Assembly: GCA_018003315.1 (NCBI GenBank)
Contig: JAGNEJ010000010.1
Span: 11,044 to 75,043 of the forward strand
Source: Verrucomicrobiales bacterium
GTDB taxonomy: Bacteria; Verrucomicrobiota; Verrucomicrobiia; Verrucomicrobiales; V1-33
Direction of reading: 5' to 3'
DNA length: 64,000 nt
Shown one piece after another: positions 1 through 59,429 of the stretch (position 1 is the first letter of the stretch; each line of letters begins with the position of its first letter). The translations under genes were made by a program, and so were the position numbers. The notes below the pieces were generated by a model, which was not told the origin of the DNA, did not search any database, and saw only the letters and a program-made list of their open reading frames with translations.

Positions 1-1
1 C

Positions 2-343
2 CGCGATTCCGAAGGAAAAGGCCGCCCCGATGGCGAGGTCTGCCTGAAGCTCGCCCACGGCCGCGCCCGCCTCATCGCCGTTTCCGCCGGCAAGCCGCTG
101 GCCTTCGCTGGCTGGGATGTCGTCGAGCAATGTGCCAAGCCCACCCGCCTCGCCGTCCACGCCGGAGCCGTCTATTATTTCCTCTGCGAAAACACCGCCG
201 CCGCGCGCGACCTCTCCACCCAGCTCCACTGGCGCCCGCGCTCCGATTTCTACGGCGAAAAAGGCTTCGGCTTCGGCTTCGCCAGCCCGCACCCGATGTC
301 CCCGGACATCCAGCAACTCGCCGGCTCCCTGTTCAAAATCTAA
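2..343 (+). CDS. cmr3: Type III-B CRISPR RAMP subunit Cmr3, C-terminal fragment (5' end outside window)
   Basis: Frame is open from the window edge to TAA at 341-343. Translation reads ...AFAGWDVVEQCAKPTRLAVHAGAVYYF...FYGEKGFGFGFASP..., a Gly-rich C-terminal RAMP loop. It sits directly upstream of cmr4-cmr5-cmr6. Confidence 0.55.
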   Translation, partial: RDSEGKGRPDGEVCLKLAHGRARLIAVSAGKPLAFAGWDVVEQCAKPTRLAVHAGAVYYFLCENTAAARDLSTQLHWRPRSDFYGEKGFGFGFASPHPMSPDIQQLAGSLFKI

Positions 344-368: not shown

Positions 369-1280
369 ATGAAATCACACCTCCTCACCCTCTACACCCG
401 CACCCCGCTCCATGTCGGCTGCGGCACCTCCGTCGATGTCGTCGATCTCCCCATCATGCGGGAGCGCATCACCAATTTCCCCGTCATTCCCAGCACCAGC
501 TTGAAAGGGGTGCTGCGCCAAGCCGGGCGCGACTATGCAAAATCCGACGGATCTGTCGGATCCGCCAAATACACACTCGCCGTGAACGACGTCCTATTCG
601 GCAACAAGGACGACGTGCAAAAAGATGCGGACGGCAAAGAGAAATTCCACGCCGGCTGCCTCCAGATCATGGAGGCCAAGCTCCTCGCCTTTCCCGTGCG
701 CTCGCTCGCCGGTTGCTTCGCCTGGCTCACCTGTCCCGCCGCCCTCCGCCGCTTCCAGCGCGACTCCGGCAAGACCTTCACCATCCCGGATGTGGCCCGC
801 GACCAAGCCATCGTCTCCAACGGCTCCGAACTCGTCGTGCAAGGCCAGAACATGGTCGTCCTTGAAGAATACGCCCTGAACACCGGCAACGAAGGCCATG
901 GTGACGTGGTGGCTGGTTTGAAGGATCTCGTCGCCGACTCTCTCTGGTCCGACAAACTCGCCAAGCGCCTCGCCATCCTCCACGACGAGGACTTCCAGCA
1001 CTTCGTCTCCACCTGCACCGAGGTCGTCGCCCGCATCGCAATCGACCCGGCAACGCGCACCGTGGGTGGTGGCGCTCTCTTCAACCAGGAAAACGTCCCC
1101 TGCGAGGCGCTCTTTTACAGCGTCTTGACGGTCCTCGCCCCGCGCCGCAACGACAGCGCCGCCGCGCCGGATGACTCCCTCACCGCCCTGTTCAAAGCCA
1201 ACGCCACCCTCCAGATCGGCGGCGACGAAACCACCGGCCACGGATTCTGCTCGGTCCACCACCAAACCCTCAACGCCTGA
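369..1280 (+). CDS. cmr4: Type III-B CRISPR RAMP backbone subunit Cmr4
   Basis: Internal ATG at 369 in the 117..1280 ORF. N-terminus is MKSHLLTLYTRTPLHVGCGTSVDVVDLPIMRE...PSTSLKGVLR, and the C-terminal G-rich loop is IGGDETTGHGF. These are classic Cmr4 RAMP motifs. Confidence 0.85.
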   Translation: MKSHLLTLYTRTPLHVGCGTSVDVVDLPIMRERITNFPVIPSTSLKGVLRQAGRDYAKSDGSVGSAKYTLAVNDVLFGNKDDVQKDADGKEKFHAGCLQIMEAKLLAFPVRSLAGCFAWLTCPAALRRFQRDSGKTFTIPDVARDQAIVSNGSELVVQGQNMVVLEEYALNTGNEGHGDVVAGLKDLVADSLWSDKLAKRLAILHDEDFQHFVSTCTEVVARIAIDPATRTVGGGALFNQENVPCEALFYSVLTVLAPRRNDSAAAPDDSLTALFKANATLQIGGDETTGHGFCSVHHQTLNA

Positions 1281-1287: not shown

Positions 1288-1734
1288 ATGAAGAATCTCG
1301 ACCAAATCCGCGCCCACAACGCCCTCGCCCACAAGGACACAATCGCTGCGTCCCAGGGCGGCGGCGACGCCATCAGCGGCTTCCCCATGCTTGTCCTCAC
1401 CGACGGTCTGCTCGCCGCCCTTGCCTTTGCCTGTGAGTGGAAAGACTCGGACCAACAACCACCTGGAGATGCAGATTTGCGACGGCAGATTACACGGCCT
1501 GATCGCGAAGGTCGTAATCGCCAACAATGGCAAAAGCGCAAACACGAAGGCGAATACACCGTTGCCCGAGCCATCGCCGCGCATCTCCACACCCAAAACA
1601 ACCGCATCACCGCAGCCGCCACCGCCGACGACCTCGTCGCCGAACTCGCCGCCCAGGACAGCGACATCCTCCTCCGCCGCGCCACCGCCGAGGCCCTCGC
1701 CTTCCTCAACTACCTCAAACGCTTCGTCGCATGA
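1288..1734 (+). CDS. cmr5: Type III-B small subunit Cmr5
   Basis: About 148 aa and helical. Starts MKNLDQIRA and ends ...RRATAEALAFLNYLKRFVA. Its position between cmr4 and cmr6 is typical of Cmr5. Confidence 0.7.
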   Translation: MKNLDQIRAHNALAHKDTIAASQGGGDAISGFPMLVLTDGLLAALAFACEWKDSDQQPPGDADLRRQITRPDREGRNRQQWQKRKHEGEYTVARAIAAHLHTQNNRITAAATADDLVAELAAQDSDILLRRATAEALAFLNYLKRFVA

Positions 1735-2918
1735 GCACCTTCACCCTCAAACTCAACGCCGCCAAGCAATCCGCCTCCTGGCAGCTCGCCCTCGACAAGT
1801 ATCCGTTCAACTTGGGCAAACCAAATTCGCCCTCGCTGACGGAGCCGGATGACAGGGGCAAAGAACAAAGCATCAAGCCCAGGCGCCTGCGGGAAGTCCG
1901 CGACCGCTACACCGCCGCCAAACCGTCGCTCGACGCCGCCGCCAAGCGCCAGCAGGATTTCCTCGCCGTCCTCGCCCGCCAACACGGCCCGCGTTTCCGC
2001 CGCGTCACCTTGGTCAACTCCTCCCGCCTTCTCCTCCACCTCGGCCGCAGCAGCGTGCTGGAAAACGTCGGCCTCCACTGCGACCGCACCACCGGCCTGC
2101 CCGTCATCCCCGGCACCGCCGTGAAAGGCGTCATCAGCACCTGGGCGTGCTGGGTCGAGCATTTCAACGATGCCGATGGCTCGTTCCGGGAATTTATCGG
2201 GGATTCAGTGCAACGTCGCCATTTCACTCAAGCGGAGTCCCGTCTGGCCGCCGCCATCTTCGGCGACAACTCCGCATCCGGTTCCACCGCAGCAGGCGAA
2301 GTCGTCTTTCTCGGTGCGTTTCCCACCACGCCGCCGGTTCTCGAACTCGACATCGTCACTCCGCACACGGACGCCGCTGGACATGATCGGAATCCAGTCC
2401 CCAACCCATTTCTAGCCATTGCGCCCGGCACCGAATGGAGCTTCGCCTTTCTCGCCAACACACGAGACGGCAGTCAGGCGAACGCGTTCCTCGATCAAAC
2501 TGCCGCCTGGCTCTCCGAATCCCTCGAACAGTCCGGCATCGGCGCGAAAACCGCCGCCGGATACGGGCGCTTTCTGGTGCCGGAAATTTGGCAATCGCTG
2601 ACCCTCGATGAAGCGGCAAAGCAGGCTCTTGCCACAAAGCAGGAAAAAGAAAGTGCCGCCGCCGAGAGGCTTGCGGCAAGCCGTGCCTCGACCGTCGGAG
2701 AATTTTCCAACGAAACGGACTTCCAGAACCGTGTCCTCGCCCGCTTGAACAAACCCGGCGAATACCAAGTCCTCCAAACGGAAGTCCAAAAGATCGAATC
2801 CAACCCCGCCAACGCTCCGTGGATCGAAAAAATCACCGCCGCCCTCCGCGAAAACAAAGACGCCCGCAAGCGCCTCAAGGACAAAGATTGGTTCCCCAAA
2901 ACCTGGCTACCCCAATGA
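1731..2918 (+). CDS. cmr6: Type III-B RAMP subunit Cmr6 with extended C-terminus
   Basis: The ATG overlaps the cmr5 stop (ATGA at 1731-1734). RAMP motifs are LPVIPGTAVKGVIS and the G-rich loop GIGAKTAAGYGRF. About 115 further residues follow the loop. Confidence 0.8.
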   Translation: MSTFTLKLNAAKQSASWQLALDKYPFNLGKPNSPSLTEPDDRGKEQSIKPRRLREVRDRYTAAKPSLDAAAKRQQDFLAVLARQHGPRFRRVTLVNSSRLLLHLGRSSVLENVGLHCDRTTGLPVIPGTAVKGVISTWACWVEHFNDADGSFREFIGDSVQRRHFTQAESRLAAAIFGDNSASGSTAAGEVVFLGAFPTTPPVLELDIVTPHTDAAGHDRNPVPNPFLAIAPGTEWSFAFLANTRDGSQANAFLDQTAAWLSESLEQSGIGAKTAAGYGRFLVPEIWQSLTLDEAAKQALATKQEKESAAAERLAASRASTVGEFSNETDFQNRVLARLNKPGEYQVLQTEVQKIESNPANAPWIEKITAALRENKDARKRLKDKDWFPKTWLPQ

Positions 2919-3709
2919 AACTTCCATTCATCGAATATCCCTTCACGCTACTTACCCCCGCCATGATCGGCGGGGCTGAAGGAAAAGCGGCTCCTGCTGA
3001 AATGCGCGTGGCTTCCATTCGCGGCCAAGTCCGCTGGTGGCACAGGAAGGCAGGTCTTGTTCCCAACTGCAATCAAGTCTGGGGGCAAACGGAACCTGCC
3101 GTTGTCGCGAGCAAAGTGAGTCTGACGCTCGCGCCAACTACGCCTCCATCACATAGGGAGGTCGACATTCTCCCCCACAAACAAAGTGGATTCCGCGATT
3201 CCATTCTCCCACTACACAAACAATCCCTCATCCTCCGCCGCCTCGTCGGCTGTCAGCAGGGCGAGTGGGAAGCCGCACAGAAGGCCGTGAAACTCTGGCT
3301 CCTCCTCGGCGGCCTCGGTCTGCGTGTCAACCGCGCCGCCGGCAGCGTCTGGCCAGTCGGCGATTGGGTGCCCACCGACGAAGCATCGCTCAAAACCACG
3401 TTGACCCAGCTTGGCTACACCCAGCCCGTCTCCTTGGCCGACGCTTCCATCCTAGAACACAAGAACCTAGCCACTGATGTGTCCCACGCGAAGAAACTGC
3501 GCCACGCCGCCTCGGACACCGTGAGCGTGCCGAGATATTTCGGCAGCATCAAACCCCGCACTCCCTCCCCGCTGAAAATGAAAGTCATCCGCCTGGGTGC
3601 CAACCACCGCTTGCTCCTCACAGGCCTTTCACTCGCGGCCATGGCGGCGGCGCGCACGGCTCTCGGCACCTCCAAGCCTCTCGGCTCGGCGGCTTGGCAC
3701 ACACTCTAA
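2915..3709 (+). CDS. cmr1: Type III-B RAMP subunit Cmr1 (short form)
   Basis: The ATG overlaps the cmr6 stop (ATGA at 2915-2918). N-terminus is MKLPFIEYPFTLLTPAMIGGA...ASIRGQVRWWHRK, which resembles the Cmr1 signature. Confidence 0.6.
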   Translation: MKLPFIEYPFTLLTPAMIGGAEGKAAPAEMRVASIRGQVRWWHRKAGLVPNCNQVWGQTEPAVVASKVSLTLAPTTPPSHREVDILPHKQSGFRDSILPLHKQSLILRRLVGCQQGEWEAAQKAVKLWLLLGGLGLRVNRAAGSVWPVGDWVPTDEASLKTTLTQLGYTQPVSLADASILEHKNLATDVSHAKKLRHAASDTVSVPRYFGSIKPRTPSPLKMKVIRLGANHRLLLTGLSLAAMAAARTALGTSKPLGSAAWHTL

Positions 3710-3828: not shown

Positions 3829-4146
3829 ATGAACCGTCTCACCATCACGCTCGACGATGACCTCTATGCCATGGCGCGGGCCCACGCGATTTCCACAAAA
3901 ACCTCGCTGAGCAAGGCGATTGGGATCTTGCTGCGACAGCGCAACCCGGGCCTGCCGTCGCCAGCCGCGCCCAAGCTCGGCGATTCCTTCCACATCGACC
4001 CGATCACGCTCCTGCCGGTCGTTCAAGGCGATGGCCGACCCATCACGATGGAGGACATCCAACGTTCTCTGGATGACGAAGATGTCCGTCACTTGGAAAT
4101 GATGGGCCTCAGTCCGGAGGAGATCGAACGCGCGCTCAACCGATGA
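3829..4146 (+). CDS. vapB: VapB-like antitoxin (ribbon-helix-helix type)
   Basis: N-terminus is MNRLTITLDDDLYAMARAHAISTKTSLSKAIGILL. The stop overlaps the start of the downstream PIN gene (ATGA at 4143-4146). Confidence 0.6.
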   Translation: MNRLTITLDDDLYAMARAHAISTKTSLSKAIGILLRQRNPGLPSPAAPKLGDSFHIDPITLLPVVQGDGRPITMEDIQRSLDDEDVRHLEMMGLSPEEIERALNR

Positions 4147-4541
4147 CCTGGCTGCTCGATGGCAATGTTTTGATTGCGATGGCTGTGGTGGACCACCCGC
4201 ACCGCGCCCGCTGCCTCCGCTGGTTTGCCGGCATTGCATCCTTTGCCACCTGTCCGGTCACCGAGGGAACTTTACTGCGCCTGCACATGCAGTATGCCAG
4301 CGACAAATCCATTGCCGCCGCATGGCGCACCCTCGAAACCTACCACGCCCATCCCCGCCACGTCTCCTGGCAGGAAAATTTTTCCTACGCCGAGATCGAT
4401 CCCACCCGCCTCACCGGCCTCCGCCAGATCACCGATTCCTGGCTGGCCGAACTCGCCCGACGCCAAGGCGGCAGACTCGCCACCCTCGATGCCGCCCTCT
4501 CCGTCCTCTGGCCGGAGTCCGCCGTCCTCATCCCCGTCTAA
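4143..4541 (+). CDS. vapC: PIN-domain toxin VapC
   Basis: 132 aa. Starts MTWLLDGNVLIAM (PIN N-terminal acidic D) and contains ...ITDSWLAELARRQGGRLATLD. Typical VapC size, and it is coupled to the antitoxin gene. Confidence 0.7.
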   Translation: MTWLLDGNVLIAMAVVDHPHRARCLRWFAGIASFATCPVTEGTLLRLHMQYASDKSIAAAWRTLETYHAHPRHVSWQENFSYAEIDPTRLTGLRQITDSWLAELARRQGGRLATLDAALSVLWPESAVLIPV

Positions 4542-4649: not shown

Positions 4650-5831
4650 ATGCCCTCAAGCCACCTTATCCTCACCGTCGGCACCGGCACCGCCGGGAAG
4701 CACTCCAATCTCGCGGCGGGTCTGCGGCGCACATTGGAACTCATCGCGCCGGAGAAATTCTGGCTGGTGCCGAGCACAGATGAGGTTTCCCAACTCACCG
4801 CCGAGTTGGTGCGCGAGGGGTTGTCGGGATTTCAGCCGTGGTCGGATGAGGTGCCGTATCGTTCCATCGCGCGTCCAGACTCGTTGGAAGACTGCCGACA
4901 GGCGGTGCGGGAGGTGATTTTGCGAGCGAGAGAAGGACTTCCGAAGGCGGCACGGCTGCTGGTGAATCCCACCTCCGGCACCAAACAGATGAGCGTGGGT
5001 GCCGCGCTCGCCGCAGTGGATGAGGGCGTGGGGGAACTCACCTTCACCGTCGGCCAGCGTGCGGACGGCGTGGTGATGACCGGCACCGAGACGCTGGAGA
5101 CCTTCGATGCCTCCGCCTATTTCGCCGAGCGCGACCGCGCCACCGCGCTGCACCTCGCCAAAGCCGGTGCATTCGCCGCAGCGGCCAGCATCGGTCGGCG
5201 GCACGTCAGCCTTACCGGTCTGGCCGATACCGCGCACTGCCTGCACGAATGGGAACGGCAGAACTACCGCGAAGCCCGCCGCATCGCCGCGCAAAGCCAA
5301 GCACCAGCGCTCGCAGCCGTGCGCCATGCCCTAGAGCAACTCGCCAAAGCCGTACAGAAGCCGGAGCCGCAGCCGCTGATCATCGCCGACATGCTGCACA
5401 CCGCCGATCTGCTGCATCGCCGCCGCGACTTTGAATCCGCCCTCGTTCTCGCCTGCCGTGCTCTGGAGATGGGCCTGCGCCTTGCCCTGTCTGCAAAGAC
5501 CGACCTGCACGAACCTTACAGCCAGCCCAAGCTCTGCGCCCTGCCCATCAGCCAGGGCATCAAAGACCGCTGCCGATCCGTCTCCCATGACGGCCAGCGC
5601 ACCATTCTCAACTTGAACACCGTCGCCAAGATTCTCACCGAACTCGGCCACGACCTCGGCGAATCGTTTTCCGCAGATGGGGAACTCCAGCGCCTCATCC
5701 GCGTGCGCAATGATCTCATGCACCAGGTCCGGGCTGTCACCGAGGCAGAAAGCCAGGGTGCGGTGCAGCGGGTGAAAAACCTGCTCGCTCCCTTGCAACT
5801 GCCGTCCACCGCTGCCCGTCCGGCCTTGTAA
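4650..5831 (+). CDS. csm6: CARF-HEPN ribonuclease, Csm6/Csx1 family
   Basis: CARF motifs are LILTVGTGT near the N-terminus and NPTSGTKQMS. The C-terminal HEPN R-x4-H motif is RNDLMH (codons 5706-5723). The ORF track starts at a TTG at 4632; the ATG at 4650 is preferred. Confidence 0.75.
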   Translation: MPSSHLILTVGTGTAGKHSNLAAGLRRTLELIAPEKFWLVPSTDEVSQLTAELVREGLSGFQPWSDEVPYRSIARPDSLEDCRQAVREVILRAREGLPKAARLLVNPTSGTKQMSVGAALAAVDEGVGELTFTVGQRADGVVMTGTETLETFDASAYFAERDRATALHLAKAGAFAAAASIGRRHVSLTGLADTAHCLHEWERQNYREARRIAAQSQAPALAAVRHALEQLAKAVQKPEPQPLIIADMLHTADLLHRRRDFESALVLACRALEMGLRLALSAKTDLHEPYSQPKLCALPISQGIKDRCRSVSHDGQRTILNLNTVAKILTELGHDLGESFSADGELQRLIRVRNDLMHQVRAVTEAESQGAVQRVKNLLAPLQLPSTAARPAL

Positions 5832-5834: not shown

Positions 5835-7670
5835 ATGTCCACGCTGCTCGTTTCCCTCGGCACCTCGCCCGCCATCGTGCCGGAGGCGTTCCTGCTTCCT
5901 GGCGTTTCGTTCTCTGCCGTGCATGTGCTGACCACCGCGTCGGTCAAAGAAAGCGACCTCGATTTCATCGCGGAATGGTTCGCCGCCAAGGCACCAAGTG
6001 TCAGTCTTTCCTTCACCCGAGTAGCGGAATTCACCGACTTCAAGTCCGAGCATGACCACTTCCAGTTCGAGGAAGTGCTTTACCGCTGGTGGCTGGTGAA
6101 TCGGCCGACAGGCGAGTCCCCCCATGTCTGCCTGTCCGGCGGCTTCAAAACCATGAGCGCGGCCATGCAGAAGGCCGCCGCCGTGCTGGGAGCCGCAGAG
6201 GTGTTTCATGTGCTCTGCGACCTGCCATTCCAGCAGCAGCCGAAAACAGCAGAGGAAATCGAGACCGCCCAGGCCAGCGACCACCTCCATTGGATCAAGC
6301 TGGGAGGTGAATCCGGCTGGCCGCAATTCCGCGCCCTCCCGGCCGACCATTTCCCGCTGACCGAAACCCACCGCGAGGATGCCGTCCGTTGGGTTTCCGC
6401 CCCGGATTCCGCCTTTCGCGACCACCTCCGGGAAATCGTCGAACGCAGCCACAACATTGCCGGTTCCTGGGAAAACCTAGCCGATCTACCGTTTGCCTCC
6501 TTGGCGACATGGACTGCCGCCCAGTTGCAGTGGCTGCGGCAGCCGCTCGACCCGTTGGCTGATCGCGATTGGGTCGCCGCCCTGCCCAAGATCGACCTCC
6601 ACTGCCACCTCGGCGGCTTCGCCACCCATGGCGAACTCCTCGCCGAAGTGCGCGCGGCGGCGGAATTTCCGGAATCGCTTCCCCCGCTCGTCGAGCCCGC
6701 GCTCCCGGCCGGTTGGCCCTTCCCGGAAACGCCCGTCGACCTCGAAGCCTACCGCAAACTCGGCGATGCGGGCGGCTCCGCGATCCTCAAGGATCCCGGG
6801 TGCCTGCGTCGCCACATCGAGCGGCTCTACCAACATTTCCAGGAACAAAACCTCGTTTACGCAGAAGTCCGTTGTTCCCCGGCAAACTACGCCACCTCCA
6901 GCCGCTCCGCATGGCATGTCCTAGCCGACATCCGCGCCGCCTTCGAACAATCCCGCGAGGCGGCCATTTCCGATGGTCGCCCGGCTCCCTTGGTCAACCT
7001 CATCGTCATCGCCACCCGCCAGACCGGGGGCGACTTCCGCACCGGCATCCTACGCCATGTCGCGCTCGCCGCCACCGCGTTCGAACACTGGGGCGATGAC
7101 GCGAAACCCCGCATCGTCGGCGTGGACCTCGCCGGATTCGAAGACCGCGCCACCCGCGCCCATTATTTCCGCGACGACTTCATGCCCGCCCTGCGCCTCG
7201 GCATGGGTGTCACCGTCCATGCCGGGGAAAATGACGACGCCGAGGGGATCTGGAGCGCCATCCTCGACCTCAACGCCCGCCGCCTCGGCCACGCCCTGCA
7301 CTTGAGCGCCTCGCCATCCTTGCTGCGCAGCGTGGCGGACCGCCGCATCGGCATCGAGATGTGCCCCTACGCGAACCTCCAGATCATTGGCTTTCCGCTC
7401 GATGCAGCCGCTGGAAACTCCACGAAACCCTACCCACTCCAGAGCTACCTCGCGGCCGGCATCCCTGCCACCATCAACACCGACAACATCGGCATCTCCG
7501 CCGCCTCGCTCACCGATAACTTCCTCCTCCTACCGCGCCTCTGCCCCGGCATCACCCGGCTCGACGTGCTCCGGTTGCTGCGCAACGCCATCGACCAAGC
7601 GTTCCTCTCCACCGCCGCTCGCCGCAGCCTTCTCTCCGGAATCTCCATGAGATCCGTCCGATCCGACTGA
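5835..7670 (+). CDS. cad1: CARF-adenosine deaminase fusion (Cad1-like type III CRISPR accessory effector)
   Basis: N-terminal CARF motifs are LLVSLGTSPAIVPEA and CLSGGFKTMSAAM. The C-terminal half carries adenosine/AMP deaminase metal-site motifs: IDLHCHLGG (~6591-6617), TVHAGEND (~7210-7233) and INTDNIG (~7473-7493). Confidence 0.85.
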   Translation: MSTLLVSLGTSPAIVPEAFLLPGVSFSAVHVLTTASVKESDLDFIAEWFAAKAPSVSLSFTRVAEFTDFKSEHDHFQFEEVLYRWWLVNRPTGESPHVCLSGGFKTMSAAMQKAAAVLGAAEVFHVLCDLPFQQQPKTAEEIETAQASDHLHWIKLGGESGWPQFRALPADHFPLTETHREDAVRWVSAPDSAFRDHLREIVERSHNIAGSWENLADLPFASLATWTAAQLQWLRQPLDPLADRDWVAALPKIDLHCHLGGFATHGELLAEVRAAAEFPESLPPLVEPALPAGWPFPETPVDLEAYRKLGDAGGSAILKDPGCLRRHIERLYQHFQEQNLVYAEVRCSPANYATSSRSAWHVLADIRAAFEQSREAAISDGRPAPLVNLIVIATRQTGGDFRTGILRHVALAATAFEHWGDDAKPRIVGVDLAGFEDRATRAHYFRDDFMPALRLGMGVTVHAGENDDAEGIWSAILDLNARRLGHALHLSASPSLLRSVADRRIGIEMCPYANLQIIGFPLDAAAGNSTKPYPLQSYLAAGIPATINTDNIGISAASLTDNFLLLPRLCPGITRLDVLRLLRNAIDQAFLSTAARRSLLSGISMRSVRSD

Positions 7671-7702: not shown

Positions 7703-8887
7703 ATGTCTCACACCACCCTCATCCACCTCGTCAGCGGCGAGCGCATGCAGAACCTGCTGCCCTTGCTCGCCCTCAAGCCGCGCACCGTTTTCCAGCTTTG
7801 CAGCGATTCCCCGGCCATCCTCGCCGCTGCCGAGCACACCGCCGCTGCCGCCCGCCAGGCCGGCATCGAGGCCGATTTCCGCATCGAAAAACTTCCCGGT
7901 GCCACCCCCACCACCCAGGACGTCCGCCACGCCCACAAGCAGCTCCTCTCCGTCTTCCCCGGCGCGGTTGTCAACATCACCGGCGGCACCAAACTCATGT
8001 CGCTGGGTGCCTACCTCGGTGCCAACGAGTTCCATGATTCCCCCATCCTTTATTGCGACACCGCCAACCGCACCTTCGTCCAGGTCGGCGAAGCCCCCTT
8101 GCCGCCGCACATGAAATCCTTCCCGGAAGTCGCCTCCCTGCTCACCGTGCCCGTCGTCATGGCCGCCCAGGGCAAGCCCTTCCGCGAGGACGCCATCACC
8201 CCGGACCTGCTCGCCTTCGGCTCCGCCGCATGGGATCTCCGCTCACGCGACCACGAATCCATCGCCGCCTGGACCTCCCGCATCCGCAGCGCCGTGCCCC
8301 GCAAAAACGGCCGCGTCGAGAAAAGCAAACCGCTGCTCCGGCGCTTCCTCGCCACCCCGCTGCCCTTCCCGGAGAGCCCCGCCGCCATCGACTACCTCGA
8401 CGCCGCCGTCGCCGCCGGCCTGCTCGCCGTGGATCCCGCCGGCGCCGTCCGCATGATCGCGGATCCCAAACCCTCGTCCGTCGAACGCGTCTCCAACCTC
8501 CTCGATGGCGCATGGCTCGAACTTGCTGTCGCCGCCATGGCTGGAAATGCCACTCGCTACGGCGACCTCCACTGGAGCGTCCAGCCGCCCGACCAGACCG
8601 GGGCCGACTACGGCGAAACCGACCTCATCGCCGTGGATCGCCAAAAACTCAACCTCGCCGTCATCTCCTGCAAAACCAGCACCCAGCACGTCTCCACCCT
8701 CGAACACCTCTCCTCCTGGCGCGACCGCGCCCGCACCCTCGGCGGCTCGCACGCCGCCGGCCACCTCTGCCTGTTCCGCGCCAAATCCTCCGACGAAGCC
8801 GCCCGCCTCCACGCCATGGGCCGCACCATGGGCCTGCACGTCCACATCAGCGCGGAAATCCCCGCCCACTTCGCCGCCACCTCTTAG
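7703..8887 (+). CDS. can2: CARF-PD-(D/E)xK nuclease, Card1/Can2 family (DUF1887-like)
   Basis: N-terminal CARF motifs are LIHLVSGERMQNLLP and NITGGTKLMS. The C-terminal restriction-endonuclease-like core is YGETDLIAVDRQKLNLAVISCKT. Confidence 0.75.
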   Translation: MSHTTLIHLVSGERMQNLLPLLALKPRTVFQLCSDSPAILAAAEHTAAAARQAGIEADFRIEKLPGATPTTQDVRHAHKQLLSVFPGAVVNITGGTKLMSLGAYLGANEFHDSPILYCDTANRTFVQVGEAPLPPHMKSFPEVASLLTVPVVMAAQGKPFREDAITPDLLAFGSAAWDLRSRDHESIAAWTSRIRSAVPRKNGRVEKSKPLLRRFLATPLPFPESPAAIDYLDAAVAAGLLAVDPAGAVRMIADPKPSSVERVSNLLDGAWLELAVAAMAGNATRYGDLHWSVQPPDQTGADYGETDLIAVDRQKLNLAVISCKTSTQHVSTLEHLSSWRDRARTLGGSHAAGHLCLFRAKSSDEAARLHAMGRTMGLHVHISAEIPAHFAATS

Positions 8888-8924: not shown

Positions 8925-9551
8925 ATGCCAACCACCCTCGTTGCTGTCTCCGGCATGTCGCCCGCCATCCTCACCGAAGCCCTCTGGGCCCTCGCCGATG
9001 AGGAAACCGCTACCGTGCCGGACGAGGTCGCCTTCGTCACCACCGTCACCGGTGCTGCTAGGCTGGAGGAGCAACTCTTCACCCCGCGCCCGGAATGGGG
9101 CAGCCTCACGGTTTATGAAAACCTGCGCGCCTCCCTCGGCTCCGCGGACCACCAACTCATCGGCGCCGGCACTCCCCAAATATTCTCCATCAACGACGGC
9201 AGCGCCGACCGCGCCCCCCACCGAAGCCTCACCGGGCATTGGGATGCTTCCAACCTCACCGCCTACCCCACTCCAGCCCTCACGTTCTGGTTCACCACGC
9301 GTTTCCTTGCCGTCATCCCGGTTATTCTGATCGGCCTCATCCTCGTCGCCTCCGCCACCAAACAGTGCCGAATTCAAGTTGGCATCGAAGGCCTCGACAA
9401 TACCATGCGCGACCACCTCCGCCAAGGCACCCTCGGTTTGCACGGGAAATCATCGCTCCCCCCGCTGAACGCCAAACCCTCATCGCGAAACTTTCGCCCG
9501 CCCAGCGCTAACCGAACGCCCGCGTCACGTTTCCTGATGGAATTCGCTTGA
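8925..9551 (+). CDS. Stand-alone CARF-domain protein (NE0113-like); possible ring nuclease, regulator or decayed remnant
   Basis: Starts MPTTLVAVSGMSPAILTEALWAL, matching the Cad1 N-terminal CARF motif. A hydrophobic strand follows, then ASATKQC where the other three CARF proteins have GGxKxMS. About 208 aa with no effector domain. Confidence 0.5.
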   Translation: MPTTLVAVSGMSPAILTEALWALADEETATVPDEVAFVTTVTGAARLEEQLFTPRPEWGSLTVYENLRASLGSADHQLIGAGTPQIFSINDGSADRAPHRSLTGHWDASNLTAYPTPALTFWFTTRFLAVIPVILIGLILVASATKQCRIQVGIEGLDNTMRDHLRQGTLGLHGKSSLPPLNAKPSSRNFRPPSANRTPASRFLMEFA

Positions 9552-9594: not shown

Positions 9595-9667
<73 letters not shown>

Positions 9668-9836: not shown

Positions 9837-11006
9837 ATGGACCCAGTATCTGCCACCGTCGCCAATCTTGCCCCCTCCATCACCCTCGCGGTTACCAACC
9901 AGGCTGCGAAGATGAAAAAGGAAGGGGTGGATGTGTGCGGCTTCGGCGCAGGCGAACCGGACTACGACACGCCGCAGCACATAAAGGAAGCCGCGGTGCA
10001 GGCACTGGCCGAAGGAAAAACCAAATACACCGCCAGTGCCGGGCTGCTGGAACTGCGCGAGGCCATCTGTGAAAAACTCATCGCCGACAACAATCTGGAG
10101 TATTCACCGGATCTTGTCAGCGTGAACTGCGGTGCCAAGCACTCCTGTTACAATGCGATTCTGGCCACCTGCGGACCGGGCGATGAGGTCATCATTCCTG
10201 CTCCCTACTGGACCAGTTATCCCGAGATGGTGCGCCTGGCCGGGGCAGAACCCGTCATCATCCAGACCAAGCAGGAAAACGGGTGGAAGCTGACGCCGGA
10301 ACAATTCGAAGAGGCGATGAGCCCTTCGACAAAAATGATCATTCTGAATTCCCCCTCGAATCCAACCGGAGTGGTGTACACCAGGGAGGAACTCGCCGCG
10401 CTGGGAGAGGTGGCGGCGAGCGAGGACATCCTCATTCTTTCCGACGAAATTTACGAAAAACTCATCTACGACGGTGCGACCCATGCCAGCATTGCCAGCA
10501 TCAGCGATGAATTGAAACAGCTCACCATCGTCATCAACGGCTTTTCGAAAGCCTACAGCATGACCGGATGGCGCATCGGCTACACCGCCACTGCCAACCG
10601 CAAGATTGCGGCAGCCATCGACACGATCCAGAGTCACACCACGTCAGCGCCCGCCACCTTTGCGCAATGGGGCGCCCTGGCTGCGCTGCACGGCGACCAG
10701 CAGGTTGTTGAAGACATGCGGGAGGATTTCAACATTCGCCGCCAATACATGCTCAAGCGCATCGGGGAAATTGCCAACGTGTCCACCGTCGAGCCCAAAG
10801 GTGCTTTTTACTTTCTGGTCAACATCGCCAAAACCGGGCTCAAGAGCACGAATTTTTCCGAAAAACTGCTCAGCCGGCACCATGTGGCGGTTGTTCCCGG
10901 CATTGCATTCGGCGCGGATGACACCGTCCGGTTCAGCTATGCCTGCGGGATGGATGTCATCAAACGCGGGCTCGACCGTTTTGCGGAATTCTGCCAGGGT
11001 TGGTGA
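9837..11006 (+). CDS. Class I pyridoxal-phosphate-dependent (aspartate-type) aminotransferase
   Basis: Motifs GAGEPDYDTPQHIKEAA, IIPAPYWTSYPEM, NSPSNPTG and the PLP-lysine region NGFSKAYSMTGWRIGY. Confidence 0.85.
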   Translation: MDPVSATVANLAPSITLAVTNQAAKMKKEGVDVCGFGAGEPDYDTPQHIKEAAVQALAEGKTKYTASAGLLELREAICEKLIADNNLEYSPDLVSVNCGAKHSCYNAILATCGPGDEVIIPAPYWTSYPEMVRLAGAEPVIIQTKQENGWKLTPEQFEEAMSPSTKMIILNSPSNPTGVVYTREELAALGEVAASEDILILSDEIYEKLIYDGATHASIASISDELKQLTIVINGFSKAYSMTGWRIGYTATANRKIAAAIDTIQSHTTSAPATFAQWGALAALHGDQQVVEDMREDFNIRRQYMLKRIGEIANVSTVEPKGAFYFLVNIAKTGLKSTNFSEKLLSRHHVAVVPGIAFGADDTVRFSYACGMDVIKRGLDRFAEFCQGW

Positions 11007-17382: not shown

Positions 17383-20300
17383 ATGATGCACACCGTGTCC
17401 TCCCGCGTTGTCTCTGCACTGCTGCTTTCCGCCGGAATTGCCCTGGGCGGTGTGCAGTTCAATCGCGACATCCGCCCGCTGCTTTCCGACAACTGTTTTG
17501 CCTGCCACGGGCCGGATCCAGGCTCGCGCAAGGCCGGACTGCGCCTCGACACCCGTGAGGGTTTTTTTGAAAAGACGGAGAAACGGGGAGCGACCGTGCT
17601 CCCTGGAAATCCAGCGGAGAGTCCACTGTTCCAGCGCCTGACAAATCCGGACCCCGAGGAAGTCATGCCGCCGCCGGAAGCCCACAAGGAATTGAAGCCG
17701 GAACAGACGGCCCTGATCCGGCAATGGATTGCGGAAGGAGCCCCCTGGCAGCCGCATTGGGCTTTCATCAAGCCGGAACGCCCCGCCGTGCCACAGGTGA
17801 AGCAGGGCGGGTGGGTCCGCAATCCGGTCGACGCCTTCATCCTTCGCGATCTGGAGGCCAAGGGACTCGCTCCCGCACCGGAGGCAGACCGACGCACCCT
17901 CGCCCGGCGTCTGGTGCTCGACCTGACTGGACTGCCGCCTGAGCCCGCAGAGGTGGACGCATTGGTCAGCGATGCGGCACCGGATGCCTATGAAAAGTTC
18001 GTGGCTGCACAGATGGCGAAACCGCAATGGGGCGAGCACCGGGGCAGGTACTGGCTAGATGCCGCACGGTATGCGGACACCCACGGCCTGCATTTCGACA
18101 ACTATCGGGAAATCTGGCCCTATCGCGACTGGGTCATCAACGCTTTCAACCGCAATCAGCCGTTTGACCAGTTCACCCGGGAACAACTGGCCGGTGACCT
18201 GCTGCCGAATCCGACTCTGGATCAACTGGTGGCCACCGGCTTTCACCGCTGCAACATCACCACCAATGAAGGCGGCACCATTCCGGAGGAAAACCTCGTT
18301 GGCTATGCCCGCGAACGCACGGAAACCACCTCCTGGGTGTGGCTGGGGCTGACGGCCAACTGCGCCGTGTGCCACGACCACAAGTTCGACCCCGTGACGG
18401 CGAAGGACTTTTACGCCATGAGCGCATTTTTCCGCAACACCACGCAGGCCGCCCTGGACGGCAATGTGAAGGACACCGCACCGGTCTTGCAGGTGCCCGC
18501 CATGGGGGAGGATCGCCTCCGCTGGGCGCAAATTGACCGCGAACTAACCGACGCGAAGACCGCGTTTGAGACAGTGAAAAAGACCGCAGCAAAAGACTTT
18601 GATGCCTGGACCGCAGCGGCCAAGCCGGAGAATCTGGAAGAACATCTGAGCCAGCAGGATCTGGTGACCCGCGTGCCTCTGAACGAAGGAGCCGGGGAGG
18701 AAGTGCGCGCCGCCTGCAGCAGCCCGGCAACGTTCAAGGCAACCGGACAGGTCCTCTGGAAGCCGGACGGAAAAATCGGTCCCGCACCGGTGATGAAAAC
18801 CGGCGCCACCTTTGATCTGGGAAATCTCTGCGATTTCGAAAAGACTCAGGCCTTCAGCTATGGCGCGTGGGTGCGTCCGGGCAAAGCCGGCGTTTTCGGC
18901 GGCATCCTCGCCCGCATGGACCAGGGAAATGACTACCGCGGCTGGGACCTTTTTCAGGATGGCCGAAACTACGCCATGCACCTTGTCAGCAAATGGCCCT
19001 CGGACGCCATCAAGGTCACCACCACGAAAAACCCGATCAAGGAAGGCCGGTGGCAACATGTCTTTGTCACCTACGACGGGTCTGAGCGGGCGGAAGGTGT
19101 TAGGATTTTCGTGGATGGAACCGCGATGGAAACGAAGGTTGAGAGCAACAACCTCCGCAACAGCATTCGGACCACCGTTCCACTGCGCATCGGCCAGCGC
19201 AGCAAGGATCAGGTTTTTGAGGACGGTGCGGTGCAGGATGTCCGGGTTTACTCAAGGCTGCTGCAGCCCGCAGAAATCAAAACCCTGGCCGGGCTGTCCA
19301 CCGCACAGTCAATTCTGGCGGCGGCGCGGGAACAACGCACGCCGCAGCAACGCGAGGCGCTGTTCCATTTTTTCCTGACGGCGGTGCATGAACCCTCCCG
19401 TCAGTCCAGCACCCGCATTGCTGCGCTGGAGAAGGAACAAAGCACCCTGCGCAGCCGCAGCCCGATTGCCTACGTGCAGAAGGAAAATCCGGATGGCATT
19501 CCATCGGCGGCGGTCCTTTTCCGAGGCCAGTACGATCAGCCGCGCGAAAAAGTCACCGCCGGGACTTTTGCGGCCCTGCACCCATTTCCCCAGGACGCAC
19601 CCCACAACCGGCTGGGCTTGGCCGAGTGGATCCTTTCCCCTGACAATCCGCTGACGGCGCGAGTGACGGTCAACCGTTTCTGGCAGGAAGTGTTCGGCGT
19701 CGGGATCGTCCGAACCTCGGAAGACTTCGGCATCATGGGCGAACCGCCCTCAAACCAGGACTTGCTGGACTGGCTGGCGGAGGAATTCCGGGAATCCAAG
19801 TGGGACGTGAAACGGCTGTTCACCCTGTTAGTGACCAGCAGCACCTACCGCCAGAGCGCCTGCACCACGCCGGACAAGCTGGAAAAGGATCCGGCCAACC
19901 GCCTGTTGAGCCGCGGTCCCCGCTTCCGCATGGACGCCGAAATGGTGCGTGACTATGCCCTCAAGGCCTCCGGCCTGCTGATTCCGAAAATCGGCGGCCC
20001 CAGCGTGAAACCCTATCAACCCGACGGGGTGTGGGAAGCCGTGGCGATGCCGGAAAGCAACACTCGGCGCTACCAGCGGGATACGGGTGAAAACCTTTAC
20101 CGACGCAGCCTCTACACCTTCTGGAAGCGCGCCGCTCCGCCAGCCAGCATGGACATCTTCAATGCCACTGCCCGCGAAACAAGCTGTCTGCGGCGGGAAC
20201 GGACGAACACCCCGCTCCAGGCGCTGGTAACCATGAACGATGTGCAATTTGTGGAAGCCGCCCGCGTCCTGGCCCAGAAGGCTCTGCTCGCTGCCCCCTC

Positions 20301-20553
20301 TGACATGGACGCGGGTCTGCAGTTTGTCGCCGCCAGGATCCTCTGCCGCCCGTTTCTCCCAGAAGAATTGAACGTTGTCAGGGAAACGCTCGATCAGCAT
20401 CTCGCCGCCTACCGGGCCGCGCCGGAGGAAGCGGGCAAGCTGATCGCTTACGGCGAATCGAAACCGGATGCCGCACTGGATCCCACGGTGCTGGCCGCGT
20501 GGACCATGGCGGTCAACCAGGTGATGAACCTGGACGAAACGCTCAACAAGTAA
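17383..20553 (+). CDS. PSCyt1/DUF1549/LamG/DUF1553 (PSD1) multidomain protein
   Basis: Signal peptide, then the planctomycete cytochrome-c motif FNRDIRPLLSDNCFACHGPD. DUF1549-like region contains WAFIKPERP...NPVDAFI. The central LamG-like region contains GRWQHVFVTYDG. A long DUF1553-like C-terminus follows. Confidence 0.8.
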   Translation: MMHTVSSRVVSALLLSAGIALGGVQFNRDIRPLLSDNCFACHGPDPGSRKAGLRLDTREGFFEKTEKRGATVLPGNPAESPLFQRLTNPDPEEVMPPPEAHKELKPEQTALIRQWIAEGAPWQPHWAFIKPERPAVPQVKQGGWVRNPVDAFILRDLEAKGLAPAPEADRRTLARRLVLDLTGLPPEPAEVDALVSDAAPDAYEKFVAAQMAKPQWGEHRGRYWLDAARYADTHGLHFDNYREIWPYRDWVINAFNRNQPFDQFTREQLAGDLLPNPTLDQLVATGFHRCNITTNEGGTIPEENLVGYARERTETTSWVWLGLTANCAVCHDHKFDPVTAKDFYAMSAFFRNTTQAALDGNVKDTAPVLQVPAMGEDRLRWAQIDRELTDAKTAFETVKKTAAKDFDAWTAAAKPENLEEHLSQQDLVTRVPLNEGAGEEVRAACSSPATFKATGQVLWKPDGKIGPAPVMKTGATFDLGNLCDFEKTQAFSYGAWVRPGKAGVFGGILARMDQGNDYRGWDLFQDGRNYAMHLVSKWPSDAIKVTTTKNPIKEGRWQHVFVTYDGSERAEGVRIFVDGTAMETKVESNNLRNSIRTTVPLRIGQRSKDQVFEDGAVQDVRVYSRLLQPAEIKTLAGLSTAQSILAAAREQRTPQQREALFHFFLTAVHEPSRQSSTRIAALEKEQSTLRSRSPIAYVQKENPDGIPSAAVLFRGQYDQPREKVTAGTFAALHPFPQDAPHNRLGLAEWILSPDNPLTARVTVNRFWQEVFGVGIVRTSEDFGIMGEPPSNQDLLDWLAEEFRESKWDVKRLFTLLVTSSTYRQSACTTPDKLEKDPANRLLSRGPRFRMDAEMVRDYALKASGLLIPKIGGPSVKPYQPDGVWEAVAMPESNTRRYQRDTGENLYRRSLYTFWKRAAPPASMDIFNATARETSCLRRERTNTPLQALVTMNDVQFVEAARVLAQKALLAAPSDMDAGLQFVAARILCRPFLPEELNVVRETLDQHLAAYRAAPEEAGKLIAYGESKPDAALDPTVLAAWTMAVNQVMNLDETLNK

Positions 20554-48999: not shown

Positions 49000-49109
49000 C
49001 GGGAAATCGCCGGTTCACTCCGTTGGAGGGCGGTTAAGAAAAGGCTTATTTGCCCTTATTTACCCTAAATTAAGCCGGAAATTTGTAACCGAATTTGTAA
49101 CGGTGGCGA

Positions 49110-50135
49110 ATGAAGATCCAGGGACTTGGGAAAAATTCACATGGGCTTTACTGGTTTCGACCCAGCCGCAAGGGACTGCCGGCCGGGACGCGGCCGAAGC
49201 CGATCAACCTCGGCACCCGCGACGAAGACGAAGCGATTGCCAAGGTGCTGGATTTGCGGAATCAAGGAACCCTGGCCCCGGCCGGGCAGCAGACGATCCA
49301 GCAATTGGTTGATGCCTACATGGCGGCGAAGACCGCATCAAGGAAGCATCGGCAGAAAACGACACAAAGTATGAAGCAGCGGCTGCACCATTTTGCCAAA
49401 TGGTTTGCCGGCCGTGCAGTTCGGGAATTGACCAGGGCCGACATCCAACGATGGTATGCCGGATGCGCCAACGGCCGCCGCAGCAATTCGACGTTGCATC
49501 AGTTTTATCGCTACGTCCGCGCCTTCCTGAACTGGTTGGTGGAGATGCGGATCATCCGCGAAAATCCCGCGAGCCGGCTGGCGGTGCCTGCGCCAAGCCA
49601 GTCGCGCCGGGAGCTTTTTTGCACGACGGCACAACGGGATGCCATCGTCAATGCATGTGTCCGGGATGATCTGCGATTCGTCCTTCTGGCGGGATTTTTC
49701 ATGGGCCTGCGCATCAATGAAATCGTCAACTGCCGGTGGAGTTGGTTCTCGTCGGATTTGTCGGTCTGCACGGTGCAAAATTCCGCTGGATTCACGACGA
49801 AAAGCGGCCGGGAGCGCACGATGCCGGTGCATTCCAAAGTGAGGGAATTTTTGCAGCGCCAGCCGCGGGGTGACGGCTATATCCTGGCTCCAAAGAAGGT
49901 GCAGGGGAAGAATTGGCTGCGCTGGGATCCCGTGGTGCCGTTCAAACTGCTGGTGAGGGAATGCGGTCTGCCGTGGGTGAGTTTCCATGTCATGCGGCAC
50001 ACGTTCGGGAGCCTGCACGCGATGGCCGGAACCCCGGAAATCAAAATCCGCCGGTGGATGGGAATCACGCAGGCGACATGGGAGCGGCATTATGCGGGGC
50101 TTGCTCCCGATGATGCGGCCATCGAGGCGATTTAG
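49110..50135 (+). CDS. int: Tyrosine recombinase / phage integrase
   Basis: SAM-like N-terminal region. The catalytic C-terminus is ...GLRINEI...HVMRHTFGSLHAMAG...ATWERHYAGL (R..HxxR..Y pattern). Confidence 0.85.
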   Translation: MKIQGLGKNSHGLYWFRPSRKGLPAGTRPKPINLGTRDEDEAIAKVLDLRNQGTLAPAGQQTIQQLVDAYMAAKTASRKHRQKTTQSMKQRLHHFAKWFAGRAVRELTRADIQRWYAGCANGRRSNSTLHQFYRYVRAFLNWLVEMRIIRENPASRLAVPAPSQSRRELFCTTAQRDAIVNACVRDDLRFVLLAGFFMGLRINEIVNCRWSWFSSDLSVCTVQNSAGFTTKSGRERTMPVHSKVREFLQRQPRGDGYILAPKKVQGKNWLRWDPVVPFKLLVRECGLPWVSFHVMRHTFGSLHAMAGTPEIKIRRWMGITQATWERHYAGLAPDDAAIEAI

Positions 50136-50797
50136 CGCCGCCCTGTAAACCGGTCCCAATGCTCCTGATTTCGGCGCATGGCGGCTTCACGGTTTCTCTC
50201 CAAATCGTCCAATTGATGATTCGGCTCAGAACGACGCATGATTTCGAGCATTTCCCGTTGCTGCTCAATGATTTCCTTCTGCTGTTCACGAATGGCATTT
50301 TGTGATTGTGCCACGGCTTGCCTTTCCCGCTCCAAATACGCACGGGCATCCAATTCTGCGGCGGCCTGCGCCTTCTGCCTCCGCTCAGCCGCTCGGCGCT
50401 CCTGGCTTGCCGCCAGAGATTTGCGGATCTGATCGGCGAAGCGGAGTTCGTCTTTTCGATCTTCAAGACGGCGTTTTTCTTCTTCTTCTTCTTCTTCTGC
50501 TTTCTGTGATTGCTCCCCTGATTGCATGGGCTCAATTTGGTCGGAGAGAGCAACGACTGCCGGAGGCTCCGCAACAACGTGGACGGATTGCATGGACTCG
50601 ATTCCCTCGATGGTGGCGCCAACATCACGGGCAGCCGGATCCGACTTTTCAGACAAACTGGACACTTCAAGCCGGGGAATTGATACAGGCGCTTGCCATC
50701 GGACCGGAATCTTTGGGGCGAACAACGATGGGATGATCCCGACCATGGCCAAGGCAGCCACTCCCGGCCAGATGATCCAAGCGAGTGATACTTTCAT
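50132..50797 (-). CDS. Membrane-anchored coiled-coil protein (phage, function unknown)
   Basis: Start chosen at MKVSLAWIIWPGVAALAMVGIIPSLF (TM). A Glu run encoded by (CTT)n at about 50477-50497 follows, then a charged coiled coil. Confidence 0.45.
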   Translation of the reverse strand: MKVSLAWIIWPGVAALAMVGIIPSLFAPKIPVRWQAPVSIPRLEVSSLSEKSDPAARDVGATIEGIESMQSVHVVAEPPAVVALSDQIEPMQSGEQSQKAEEEEEEEKRRLEDRKDELRFADQIRKSLAASQERRAAERRQKAQAAAELDARAYLERERQAVAQSQNAIREQQKEIIEQQREMLEIMRRSEPNHQLDDLERNREAAMRRNQEHWDRFTGRR

Positions 50798-50852
50798 GCC
50801 TGCGCTAATACAGGTCTTATTAGCGCGGATCAACGCTATTTTTGACAGTTGT

Positions 50853-52967: not shown

Positions 52968-53002
52968 TTGCGTTTTGGGTAAATAAGGGCTGATTAGGGC
53001 TT

Positions 53003-53410
53003 ATGAAGCGTGGTTCGTTCGTCGATTTGATGCGTGGTGTCCGGGAAAAATCCGGCATGTCGCTCGCTGATGTTGGGAAGTCCGCTGGGATTTCCCGCGG
53101 TGCTGTCTGGCGCATGGAGACTTCCGGGTATCCCCTCCCTCGTGGTCGCACGCTGGAGCGGGTTCTCCGTTATGGATACGGGCTGGACGCCACCGATGGG
53201 ATTTATGTCAGCATCGTTTCCCGTTGGACACAGGAACGGCTTGGTTCGTCGGTGCATCCGCGCATTCCGCAGGGCCGTGCAGCCGTCATCGAACGCATTG
53301 CCGGGCTGTCCCGCAGTCATTTTTTGACTCTGGCTGCGCTTTCCAGTGATCCTGGATTGCTTGATCTGGTATCGGCGATGGTCCGGGCTCATCGTAGGGC
53401 GGCGGTGTAA
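53003..53410 (+). CDS. XRE-family helix-turn-helix transcriptional regulator (phage repressor-like)
   Basis: HTH segment is GMSLADVGKSAGISRGAVWRMETSG. Divergent from the portal-like gene with only 35 bp between them. Confidence 0.65.
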   Translation: MKRGSFVDLMRGVREKSGMSLADVGKSAGISRGAVWRMETSGYPLPRGRTLERVLRYGYGLDATDGIYVSIVSRWTQERLGSSVHPRIPQGRAAVIERIAGLSRSHFLTLAALSSDPGLLDLVSAMVRAHRRAAV

Positions 53411-56661: not shown

Positions 56662-56671
56662 TATTTTGCAG

Positions 56672-56688
56672 TTGCAAGTTGCTTGCAA
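56672..56688. promoter_or_regulatory. Palindromic operator candidate in a 45-bp divergent intergenic region
   Basis: TTGCAAG-TTG-CTTGCAA is a perfect 7-bp inverted repeat. It lies between the start of paralog A (56661, minus strand) and the scaffold-like gene (56707, plus strand). Confidence 0.35.
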
Positions 56689-56706
56689 CACGCGAGTGTA
56701 TCCACA

Positions 56707-57750: not shown

Positions 57751-57871
57751 TCGGTCCGTTTCCTAGCAATCAAATCCACCACTGAGCAACCGGCACTGTC
57801 GCCGGCCTCTCTCATTCCCTGACGCGGCACAATCATGCCGTGGCGGGAGCCCATTCCAACCGAAACCTACA

Positions 57872-59359: not shown

Positions 59360-59429
59360 TTCGCGGGGCGGGCGGGGGTGAAAATCTCCGCCCGCCTCTT
59401 CTTTCCATCCCCATTTGGAGGAACAGCCC

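Follow-up and report, generated by a model that had tools for sequence, protein, structure and literature searches.

The gene at positions 5835..7670 (+) of a 64,000-nucleotide stretch of a Verrucomicrobiales bacterium (contig JAGNEJ010000010.1, assembly GCA_018003315.1; hereafter the window) very probably encodes, to judge from its sequence, a functional Cad1/CAAD, that is, a cyclic oligoadenylate (cOA)-gated ATP deaminase serving a verrucomicrobial type III-B (Cmr) CRISPR system. By sequence and by modelled fold the product is a Cad1/CAAD orthologue, a new member of an already characterised family. That the gene is intact, what it is homologous to, how its product folds, which residues are kept and what surrounds it were each established directly and are set out below.

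An intact fusion of a CARF domain and an adenosine deaminase

The cad1/CAAD open reading frame (ORF) starts with ATG, is intact and encodes 611 aa, which divide approximately into a CARF domain (aa 1-190), a helical linker (aa 191-245) and an adenosine-deaminase TIM barrel (aa 246-605). The CARF signatures LLVSLGTSPAIVPEA and CLSGGFKTMSAAM occupy aa 4-18 and aa 99-111, and the deaminase motifs IDLHCHLGG, VYAEVRCSP, VHAGEND and INTDN are found at aa 253-261, 341-349, 461-467 and 547-551. In Pfam, a CARF-type Cas_NE0113 domain covers aa 24-141 (E 8.4e-9) and A_deaminase (PF00962) covers aa 251-604 (E 1.9e-37). The exact 611-aa protein was also found on metagenome contigs of five sequencing runs, four of which were compared and showed 0-3 nt differences across the overlaps. 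An earlier, sequence-only reading of this DNA had described a 611-aa ORF at 5835-7670 as a Cad1-like fusion of CARF and adenosine deaminase domains. Its coordinates proved exact and all six of the motifs that it quoted were found; the fusion is borne out by the Pfam domains and by full-length matches to solved Cad1/CAAD chains, and the Cad1-like identity by full-length sequence, predicted fold and the functional residues that have been kept.

Comparison with PDB sequences using phmmer, with identities parsed from the HMMER alignments, placed aa 2-605 against three characterised enzymes: LngCAAD of Limisphaera ngatamarikiensis (8z3p/8z3k; E 1e-229), TaqCad1, also named TaqCAAD, of Thermoanaerobaculum aquaticum (9ebt/9ubl; E 1e-205) and BbaCad1 of a Bacteroidales bacterium (9c67; E 1e-150). 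As sequence matches, these are far beyond chance. Identity amounts to 61.7% with LngCAAD over 598 aligned residues, 55.4% with TaqCad1 and 46.8% with BbaCad1, and relative to LngCAAD it is 62% in the CARF domain, 46% in the helical linker and 65% in the deaminase domain. The best relative in a search of 5.8 billion proteins is about 68% identical, and the named relatives are almost all from Verrucomicrobiota.

An AlphaFold2 monomer model built with 23 homologues reached a mean predicted local distance difference test score (pLDDT) of 88.4 and a predicted template modelling score (pTM) of 0.80. When this model was compared with the PDB in Foldseek, the top matches were CAAD/Cad1 chains only, with full-length template modelling (TM) scores of 0.83-0.86 to cOA-bound CAAD/Cad1 (8z3k, 9mmw, 9ofb) and 0.92-0.96 to CAAD/Cad1 chains in which the deaminase core alone is resolved. 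Ordinary adenosine deaminases (ADAs) match the C-terminal half of the model only, with target-normalised TM scores of up to 0.84. The sequence-only reading had named a failure of the N-terminal domain to fold as CARF as grounds for giving it up; instead, this domain takes the CARF fold in the model and can be superposed on its counterpart in solved Cad1. The monomer also lies nearer to cOA-bound chains (TM ~0.85) than to apo chains (~0.6-0.68), from which no conclusion is drawn because this reflects only the relative domain orientation in a monomer model.

Conservation of functional residues

Residues defined by structure or mutagenesis in LngCAAD, TaqCad1/TaqCAAD and BbaCad1 were mapped by alignment onto the window protein, and conservation was assessed in an alignment of 23 Cad1 homologues with 55-68% identity to it. 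The metal ligands H256, H258, H462 and D550 are identical in all three enzymes and invariant in the 23 homologues, as are the catalytic residues E465 and H486. Loss of metal-binding residues was a further ground on which the sequence-only reading could have been given up, and the His/His/His/Asp set and the catalytic Glu/His are all in place.

Two substitutions specific to Cad1 are also present, namely G260 at the position of Asp19 and N551 at the position of Asp296 in mouse ADA. TaqCad1 does not deaminate adenosine, and its N549D variant, which alters the Asn at the mouse Asp296 position, is inactive on ATP (PMC12669630). Contacts to the ribose and triphosphate of ATP are kept at G310, S315, S348, N351, Y352 and T394, corresponding to G314, S319, S352, N355, Y356 and T396 of TaqCad1, and the catalytic and ATP-contact positions are invariant across the homologues.

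In the CARF domain, motif I reads G9-T10-S11 (family pattern G-T/H-S) and motif II reads G102-G103-F104-K105 (family pattern GG-x-K), while the further predicted cOA contacts E17, T34 and H125 are kept as well (Glu17, Thr35 and His126 in TaqCad1). The motif II lysine is critical in TaqCad1, where K106A loses cA4 binding, cA4 cleavage and activation (PMC12669630, PMC12993439). The alignment shows the same retention at the subunit interfaces: S108 and W162 at the CARF dimer contact; R454, E470, W473, R482, R498 and R503 at the deaminase dimer interface; and S358, W360, H418, R395, R407, A410 and E417 at the hexamer interface. Essentially all of the mapped functional residues are invariant in the homologues, with W360 and H418 nearly so. 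Furthermore, residues found by mutation to be required in TaqCAAD/TaqCad1 or BbaCad1 are identical here, including H256, H258, H462, H486, D550, S315 and K105 as well as W360 with S358, R454, R407 with A410, and N551.

Proposed mechanism

The mechanism of the family, in which cOA gates the conversion of ATP to inosine triphosphate (ITP) by a hexamer and the cell enters reversible growth arrest, has been published, and the trimer-of-dimers hexamer is needed for activity (PMC11645235, PMC12669630, PMC12993439). All of the biochemistry proposed here is transferred from these homologues: specificity for ATP, dependence on cOA, assembly into a hexamer and activity as a ring nuclease. The Cmr complex would recognise an invader transcript, upon which the palm domain of Cas10, with its GGDD motif, would synthesise cA4 and/or cA6. 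The cOA would bind at the CARF-dimer interface through G9-T10-S11, G102-G103-F104-K105, E17, T34 and H125, and its binding would remodel the deaminase domains inside the trimer-of-dimers hexamer such that the metal site (H256, H258, H462, D550; E465, H486) turns ATP into ITP. ITP production would then lead to reversible growth arrest and block phage propagation.

By analogy with its relatives, the window protein probably also degrades cA4 and so limits its own signal, because CARF motifs I and II match those of the cA4-cleaving TaqCad1 and not those of the non-cleaving BbaCad1. Moreover, the genes for a CARF-HEPN RNase and a Can2/Card1-like nuclease appear to share a transcript with Cad1, so that a single signal would set off three distinct effectors.

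The type III-B operon and neighbouring CARF genes

Judged by its genes, the type III-B effector operon around Cad1 is complete, and its Cas10 is predicted from the GGDD motif to be competent for cOA synthesis. The window opens within the 3' end of cmr3 (1..343, +), whose start lies before position 1; cas10/cmr2 precedes cmr3 and is likewise outside the window. This missing part is present in a metagenome assembly (L058) that overlaps the window by 9631 bases with a single difference and reaches 4166 nt further upstream, where it carries Cas_Cmr3 and a 902-aa Cas10/Cmr2 (Pfam Cmr2_N, palm2) with an intact GGDD at aa 644. Within the window, cmr4 (369..1280, +) encodes a RAMP protein of 303 aa (TIGR02580 Cmr4 4.9e-58, above cutoff; Pfam RAMPs) and cmr5 (1288..1734, +) a protein of 148 aa (Pfam Cas_Cmr5 1.9e-11), both of which are also gene calls in the same assembly. 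These are followed by cmr6 (1731..2918, +), a RAMP of 395 aa (TIGR01898 Cmr6 1.5e-29, above cutoff), and by a 264-aa RAMP gene (2915..3709, +) that is weakly assigned as cmr1-like (Pfam RAMPs 1.9e-4; TIGR01894 Cmr1 2.3e-4, below cutoff). Among 57 related genomic loci that were compared, many of them on incomplete contigs, homologues of this last gene stand at the equivalent position in 18. The type III-B setting suggested by the sequence-only reading is thus upheld by cmr4, cmr5 and cmr6 upstream of Cad1.

Two small genes are inserted between the cmr1-like gene and the CARF-HEPN gene. The one at 3829..4146 (+) encodes a ribbon-helix-helix (RHH)/DUF6364-like protein of 105 aa, a putative antitoxin with weak Pfam matches to DUF6364 and RHH_1, and it overlaps by 4 nt a gene at 4143..4541 (+) for a PIN-domain protein of 132 aa, a putative VapC-type toxin (Pfam PIN 4.6e-6, above cutoff). 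By sequence the two look like a VapBC-type toxin-antitoxin pair, which is absent at that position in all 57 related loci.

Cad1 is flanked by two other CARF genes. Upstream, a gene at 4650..5831 (+), whose stop codon lies 3 nt ahead of the Cad1 start, encodes a 393-aa CARF-HEPN effector of Csm6/Csx1 type (TIGR02710 2.1e-17, below cutoff; Pfam Csm6 HEPN 4.9e-6) with an R-x4-H motif, RNDLMH, at aa 353-358. A phmmer search of this protein against the PDB gave no match, and its assignment draws on TIGR02710, the Pfam HEPN domain and the R-x4-H motif. Downstream, a gene at 7703..8887 (+) encodes a Can2/Card1-like CARF nuclease of 394 aa (Pfam CARF_Card1 2.5e-6, above cutoff; Card1_endonuc 1.5e-3, below cutoff), of which the CARF domain matches Can2 in the PDB (7bdv, E 4.5e-6) and the GxWxE...GETD...SCK motifs are kept in 17 homologues. 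The two nuclease-type CARF effectors listed in the sequence-only reading are therefore present as described; a fourth, truncated CARF-type gene had gone unmentioned there.

That gene, at 8925..9551 (+), is the 3'-truncated remnant of an NE0113-family (TIGR02584) CARF ring nuclease, a 208-aa ORF in which homology is limited to about 8925..9248. It scores 54 bits on TIGR02584, against a cutoff of 80.65, over its first 65 aa, whereas full-length NE0113 homologues of 354-387 aa reach 193-202 bits, and only about 97 of some 360 residues are homologous. The rest of the gene, including motif II AGGRKTMG, was not found in any frame of the window. A frameshifted full-length gene was also considered and rejected, as none of the frames yielded a further part of the gene when six full-length homologues were used as tblastn queries; the ORF is for this reason taken to be truncated and not frameshifted. 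The truncation abuts a tRNA-Thr(TGT) at 9595..9667 (+; Rfam tRNA 70.8 bits, ARAGORN), which suggests a rearrangement at the module boundary. This tRNA marks the 3' boundary of the CRISPR module, and housekeeping genes begin after it at about 9.8 kb.

Deviations and alternative explanations

Several observations weigh against a standard cOA-gated ATP deaminase at this locus. R307 (nt 6753-6755) replaces an active-site Met common to LngCAAD, TaqCad1 and BbaCad1, and at this position BbaCad1 M294A is inactive (PMC11645235); an M311D variant of TaqCad1 at the same position is reported as made and assayed (PMC12669630). F104 stands at the stacking Tyr105 of TaqCAAD, where Y105A is inactive (PMC12669630, PMC12993439), but Phe is also found in LngCAAD and in 117 of 119 homologues. 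The interdomain ATP pocket of BbaCad1 (R161, K165, K589, W585, Y373) is not conserved: R166 alone is retained, and the remaining positions are Ala, gaps or outside the aligned region. K165 and K589 are required in BbaCad1, for which alone the pocket has been described (PMC11645235), and in our judgement it is specific to that enzyme and does not define the family. At the level of the locus, no CRISPR array that could supply CRISPR RNA (crRNA) was found in the 64-kb window (Tandem Repeats Finder (TRF), and an interspaced direct-repeat search with seed 12 and spacing <=120 nt) or in the 4 kb upstream. Likewise, a regular-expression search of the six-frame translation found no Nudix box in the window, and hence no counterpart of the Nudix partner described for the CAAD system that Li et al. 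studied in 2025. The same expression, which is not a hidden Markov model and could let divergent Nudix proteins escape, gave one match (L035) in 61 related loci.

Arginine at position 307 recurs in 16 of 91 close homologues (~18%), with Met in 69, and because of this recurrence R307 looks, on sequence, like a trait of a minority subclade, a natural variant rather than damage. The change could also have altered which substrates the enzyme accepts, with dATP, ADP or some other adenine nucleotide as candidates, or how it handles metal. The Met shared by all three characterised enzymes, the inactivity of BbaCad1 M294A (PMC11645235), the minority distribution of Arg and the presence of a cationic side chain beside the triphosphate site, where it could alter nucleotide contacts, all fit such a shift. 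However, the other ATP-contact residues are identical (G310, S315, S348, N351, Y352, T394, N551), and this explanation is very unlikely. There is practically no likelihood that the protein is an ordinary housekeeping adenosine deaminase (Add) extended by chance at its N-terminus, or a relic that has lost its activity. Such a reading draws on the Pfam A_deaminase domain and TIGR01430 matches, yet the gene lies within a cmr operon, a conserved CARF domain makes up the N-terminal part, and the ORF is intact with its functional residues kept. A housekeeping Add was rejected on two further grounds: the TIGR01430 score is 142.4 bits against a cutoff of 216.55, and two residues of canonical ADA, Asp19, which binds adenosine, and the catalytic Asp296, are replaced by Gly260 and Asn551, as in Cad1.

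A less remote, though still doubtful, alternative is that Cad1 acts mainly as a ring nuclease that switches off the adjoining CARF-HEPN and Can2/Card1-like nucleases, ATP deamination being its lesser role. In T. aquaticum, TaqCad1/TaqCAAD breaks down cA4 and dampens the Csx1 encoded along with it (PMC12669630, PMC12993439), and the window protein has the Taq motif I (G-T10-S11) and motif II K105, where the non-cleaving BbaCad1 has a motif I His. NCBI labels close homologues 'CRISPR-associated ring nuclease'. In addition, the stand-alone NE0113 gene is full in 24 of the 57 related loci and reduced here to about 97 homologous residues, and a ring-nuclease role for Cad1 would weigh more at this locus because the dedicated downstream gene is truncated. 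Clear purifying selection on the whole deaminase active site and on the hexamer interfaces nevertheless argues that deamination has been retained, and since both activities coexist in TaqCad1, cA4 cleavage would add to cOA-gated ATP deamination and not replace it. A bolder proposal, which we consider quite unlikely, is that the Arg307 subclade has an altered nucleotide specificity or activation threshold and that Cad1 serves here as the sole cOA off-switch for the HEPN RNase, the ATP deaminase and the Can2/Card1-type nuclease, the NE0113 gene having decayed.

Related loci and other features

The recurrent order in related loci is cmr2-6 followed by Cad1, Card1-like and NE0113-like genes, and the order from cmr to Cad1 is seen in more than 20 of them. 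Among the 57 loci, Cas10 is found in 21, a Card1-like gene in 19, a full-length NE0113-like gene in 24 and CARF-HEPN in 7; in verrucomicrobial loci, no other gene follows Cad1 as often as the full-length NE0113 gene. The cmr genes most similar to those of the window are in a Verrucomicrobiaceae metagenome-assembled genome (L054; Cmr5 97%, Cmr4 79%, CARF-HEPN 79%). At 10001-10345 of that locus the Cad1 match is limited to residues 1-118 and is followed by an NE0113-like gene, and Cad1 may be truncated or lost there.

A Cad1 subfamily of 850-970 aa, found outside the window, carries an insertion in addition to the CARF and deaminase domains, which share ~60% identity with those of the window protein (P0020, P0036, P0038, P0052, P0057, P0064, P0082, P0083, P0086, P0089, P0101, P0105, P0109). 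In P0052 the insertion is of about 285 aa at the position of residue ~379 of the window protein, in a surface loop of the TIM barrel, and an IS200/RayT-like Y1 transposase domain (PF01797) was found in all five of the inserted proteins scanned with Pfam. On the basis of Cad1 match length, loci L032, L034, L042, L043, L045 (Roseibacillus ishigakijimensis KCTC 12986) and L046 probably belong to this subfamily as well. A RayT- or transposase-containing Cad1 was not mentioned in PMC11645235, PMC12669630 or PMC12993439, or in a full-text literature search.

Beyond the CRISPR module, the window encodes at 17383-20553 (+) a protein of 1056 aa with PSCyt1, PSCyt2 (DUF1549), Laminin_G_3 and PSD1 (DUF1553) domains, an architecture that is typical of the Planctomycetes-Verrucomicrobia group and agrees with the placement suggested by the relatives of Cad1. 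A prophage-like region at about 49100-64000, with a G+C content of 0.55-0.58 compared to 0.60-0.65 elsewhere and a strong AT skew, continues past the 3' end of the window. Its genes include an integrase (49110-50135, +), an SU10-type portal (50853-52967, -), a glycosyltransferase-like gene (53389-54483, -) and a major head protein (57872-59359, +). The sole repeats in the window, 51-nt coding tandem repeats at 55841-56083 (3.6 copies, 97% matches), lie in this region, where long ORFs such as 55453-56961 (-) run across them on both strands. They do not form a CRISPR array and probably encode a repetitive part of a structural protein.

Comparison with known systems

The locus introduces no new mechanism: the formation of ITP from ATP, the hexamer, the ring-nuclease activity and the occurrence alongside Csm6, Card1 or Csx1 have all been published. 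What it contributes is one more Cad1/CAAD orthologue, intact and well supported, from a lineage of Verrucomicrobiota that has not been cultured, and it could be used for asking whether the active-site Met-to-Arg variant matters. Its compact type III-B operon, with three predicted cOA-sensing effectors of different chemistry, is also a suitable natural setting in which to study how several effectors share a second messenger.

Canonical ADA (Add; PF00962, TIGR01430) shares with the window protein the TIM barrel, the HxH/His/Asp metal ligands and the catalytic Glu and His. It differs in having no CARF domain, in not being gated by a hexamer and in acting on adenosine, with Asp19 and Asp296 (mouse) in place of Gly260 and Asn551. 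The ATP/dATP deaminase RdrB of RADAR, a CRISPR-independent anti-phage system, follows an ATP-to-ITP strategy like that of Cad1. RdrB has no CARF sensor and no cOA regulation, and is partnered with the RdrA ATPase. The RADAR defence has been cited as a precedent for this strategy (PMC12669630).

Within the Cad1/CAAD family, of which members from at least three organisms have had their biochemistry and structure worked out (PMC11645235, PMC12669630, PMC12993439; Li et al. 2025, as cited there), BbaCad1 (PDB 9c67 and related; PMC11645235) has the same architecture, and its H243/H448/H472/D533 and W349 correspond to H256/H462/H486/D550 and W360 of the window protein. It differs in being the only effector of its locus, which is of type III-A (Csm), in having His instead of Thr in motif I and in lacking ring-nuclease activity. 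The closest solved relative, LngCAAD (PDB 8z3k, 8z3p, 8z40; Li et al. 2025, as cited in PMC12993439 and PMC12669630), likewise comes from Verrucomicrobiota and a type III context, and has the same three-part architecture, catalytic set and Phe at the cOA-stacking position. The modelled window protein matches it in Foldseek with TM scores of 0.84-0.85. In contrast to the window protein, it has Met at the position of R307 and two short insertions, one after window aa 129 and the other in the 523-530 loop. Earlier-studied CAAD systems are paired with a Nudix hydrolase (PMC12993439), and in the window two other CARF effectors flank Cad1 instead of such a partner.

TaqCad1/TaqCAAD (PDB 9ebt, 9mmw, 9of*, 9ubl; PMC12669630, PMC12993439) resembles the window system in its type III-B (Cmr) setting and co-encoded CARF-HEPN RNase, and shares with it the Thr-Ser of motif I and the Lys of motif II, on which cA4 cleavage depends. 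The residues of its deaminase site, ATP contacts and interfaces that mutation has defined are all the same here, while Tyr105 and Met311 correspond to Phe104 and Arg307. In T. aquaticum, however, the HEPN effector (Csx1) lies downstream of CAAD, whereas in the window the CARF-HEPN gene is upstream and a third effector, the Can2/Card1-like nuclease, is downstream. The multi-effector arrangement is itself already known, because CAAD co-occurs with further CARF effectors (Csm6, Card1, Csx1) in 76% of 121 systems (PMC12993439). The sequence-only reading was thus right on the identity of the gene and overstated its unusualness: the family is characterised and co-occurrence with other effectors is the rule. 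With HEPN and Card1-type effectors around Cad1 and an inserted toxin-antitoxin pair, the window holds a richer example than the loci dissected so far.

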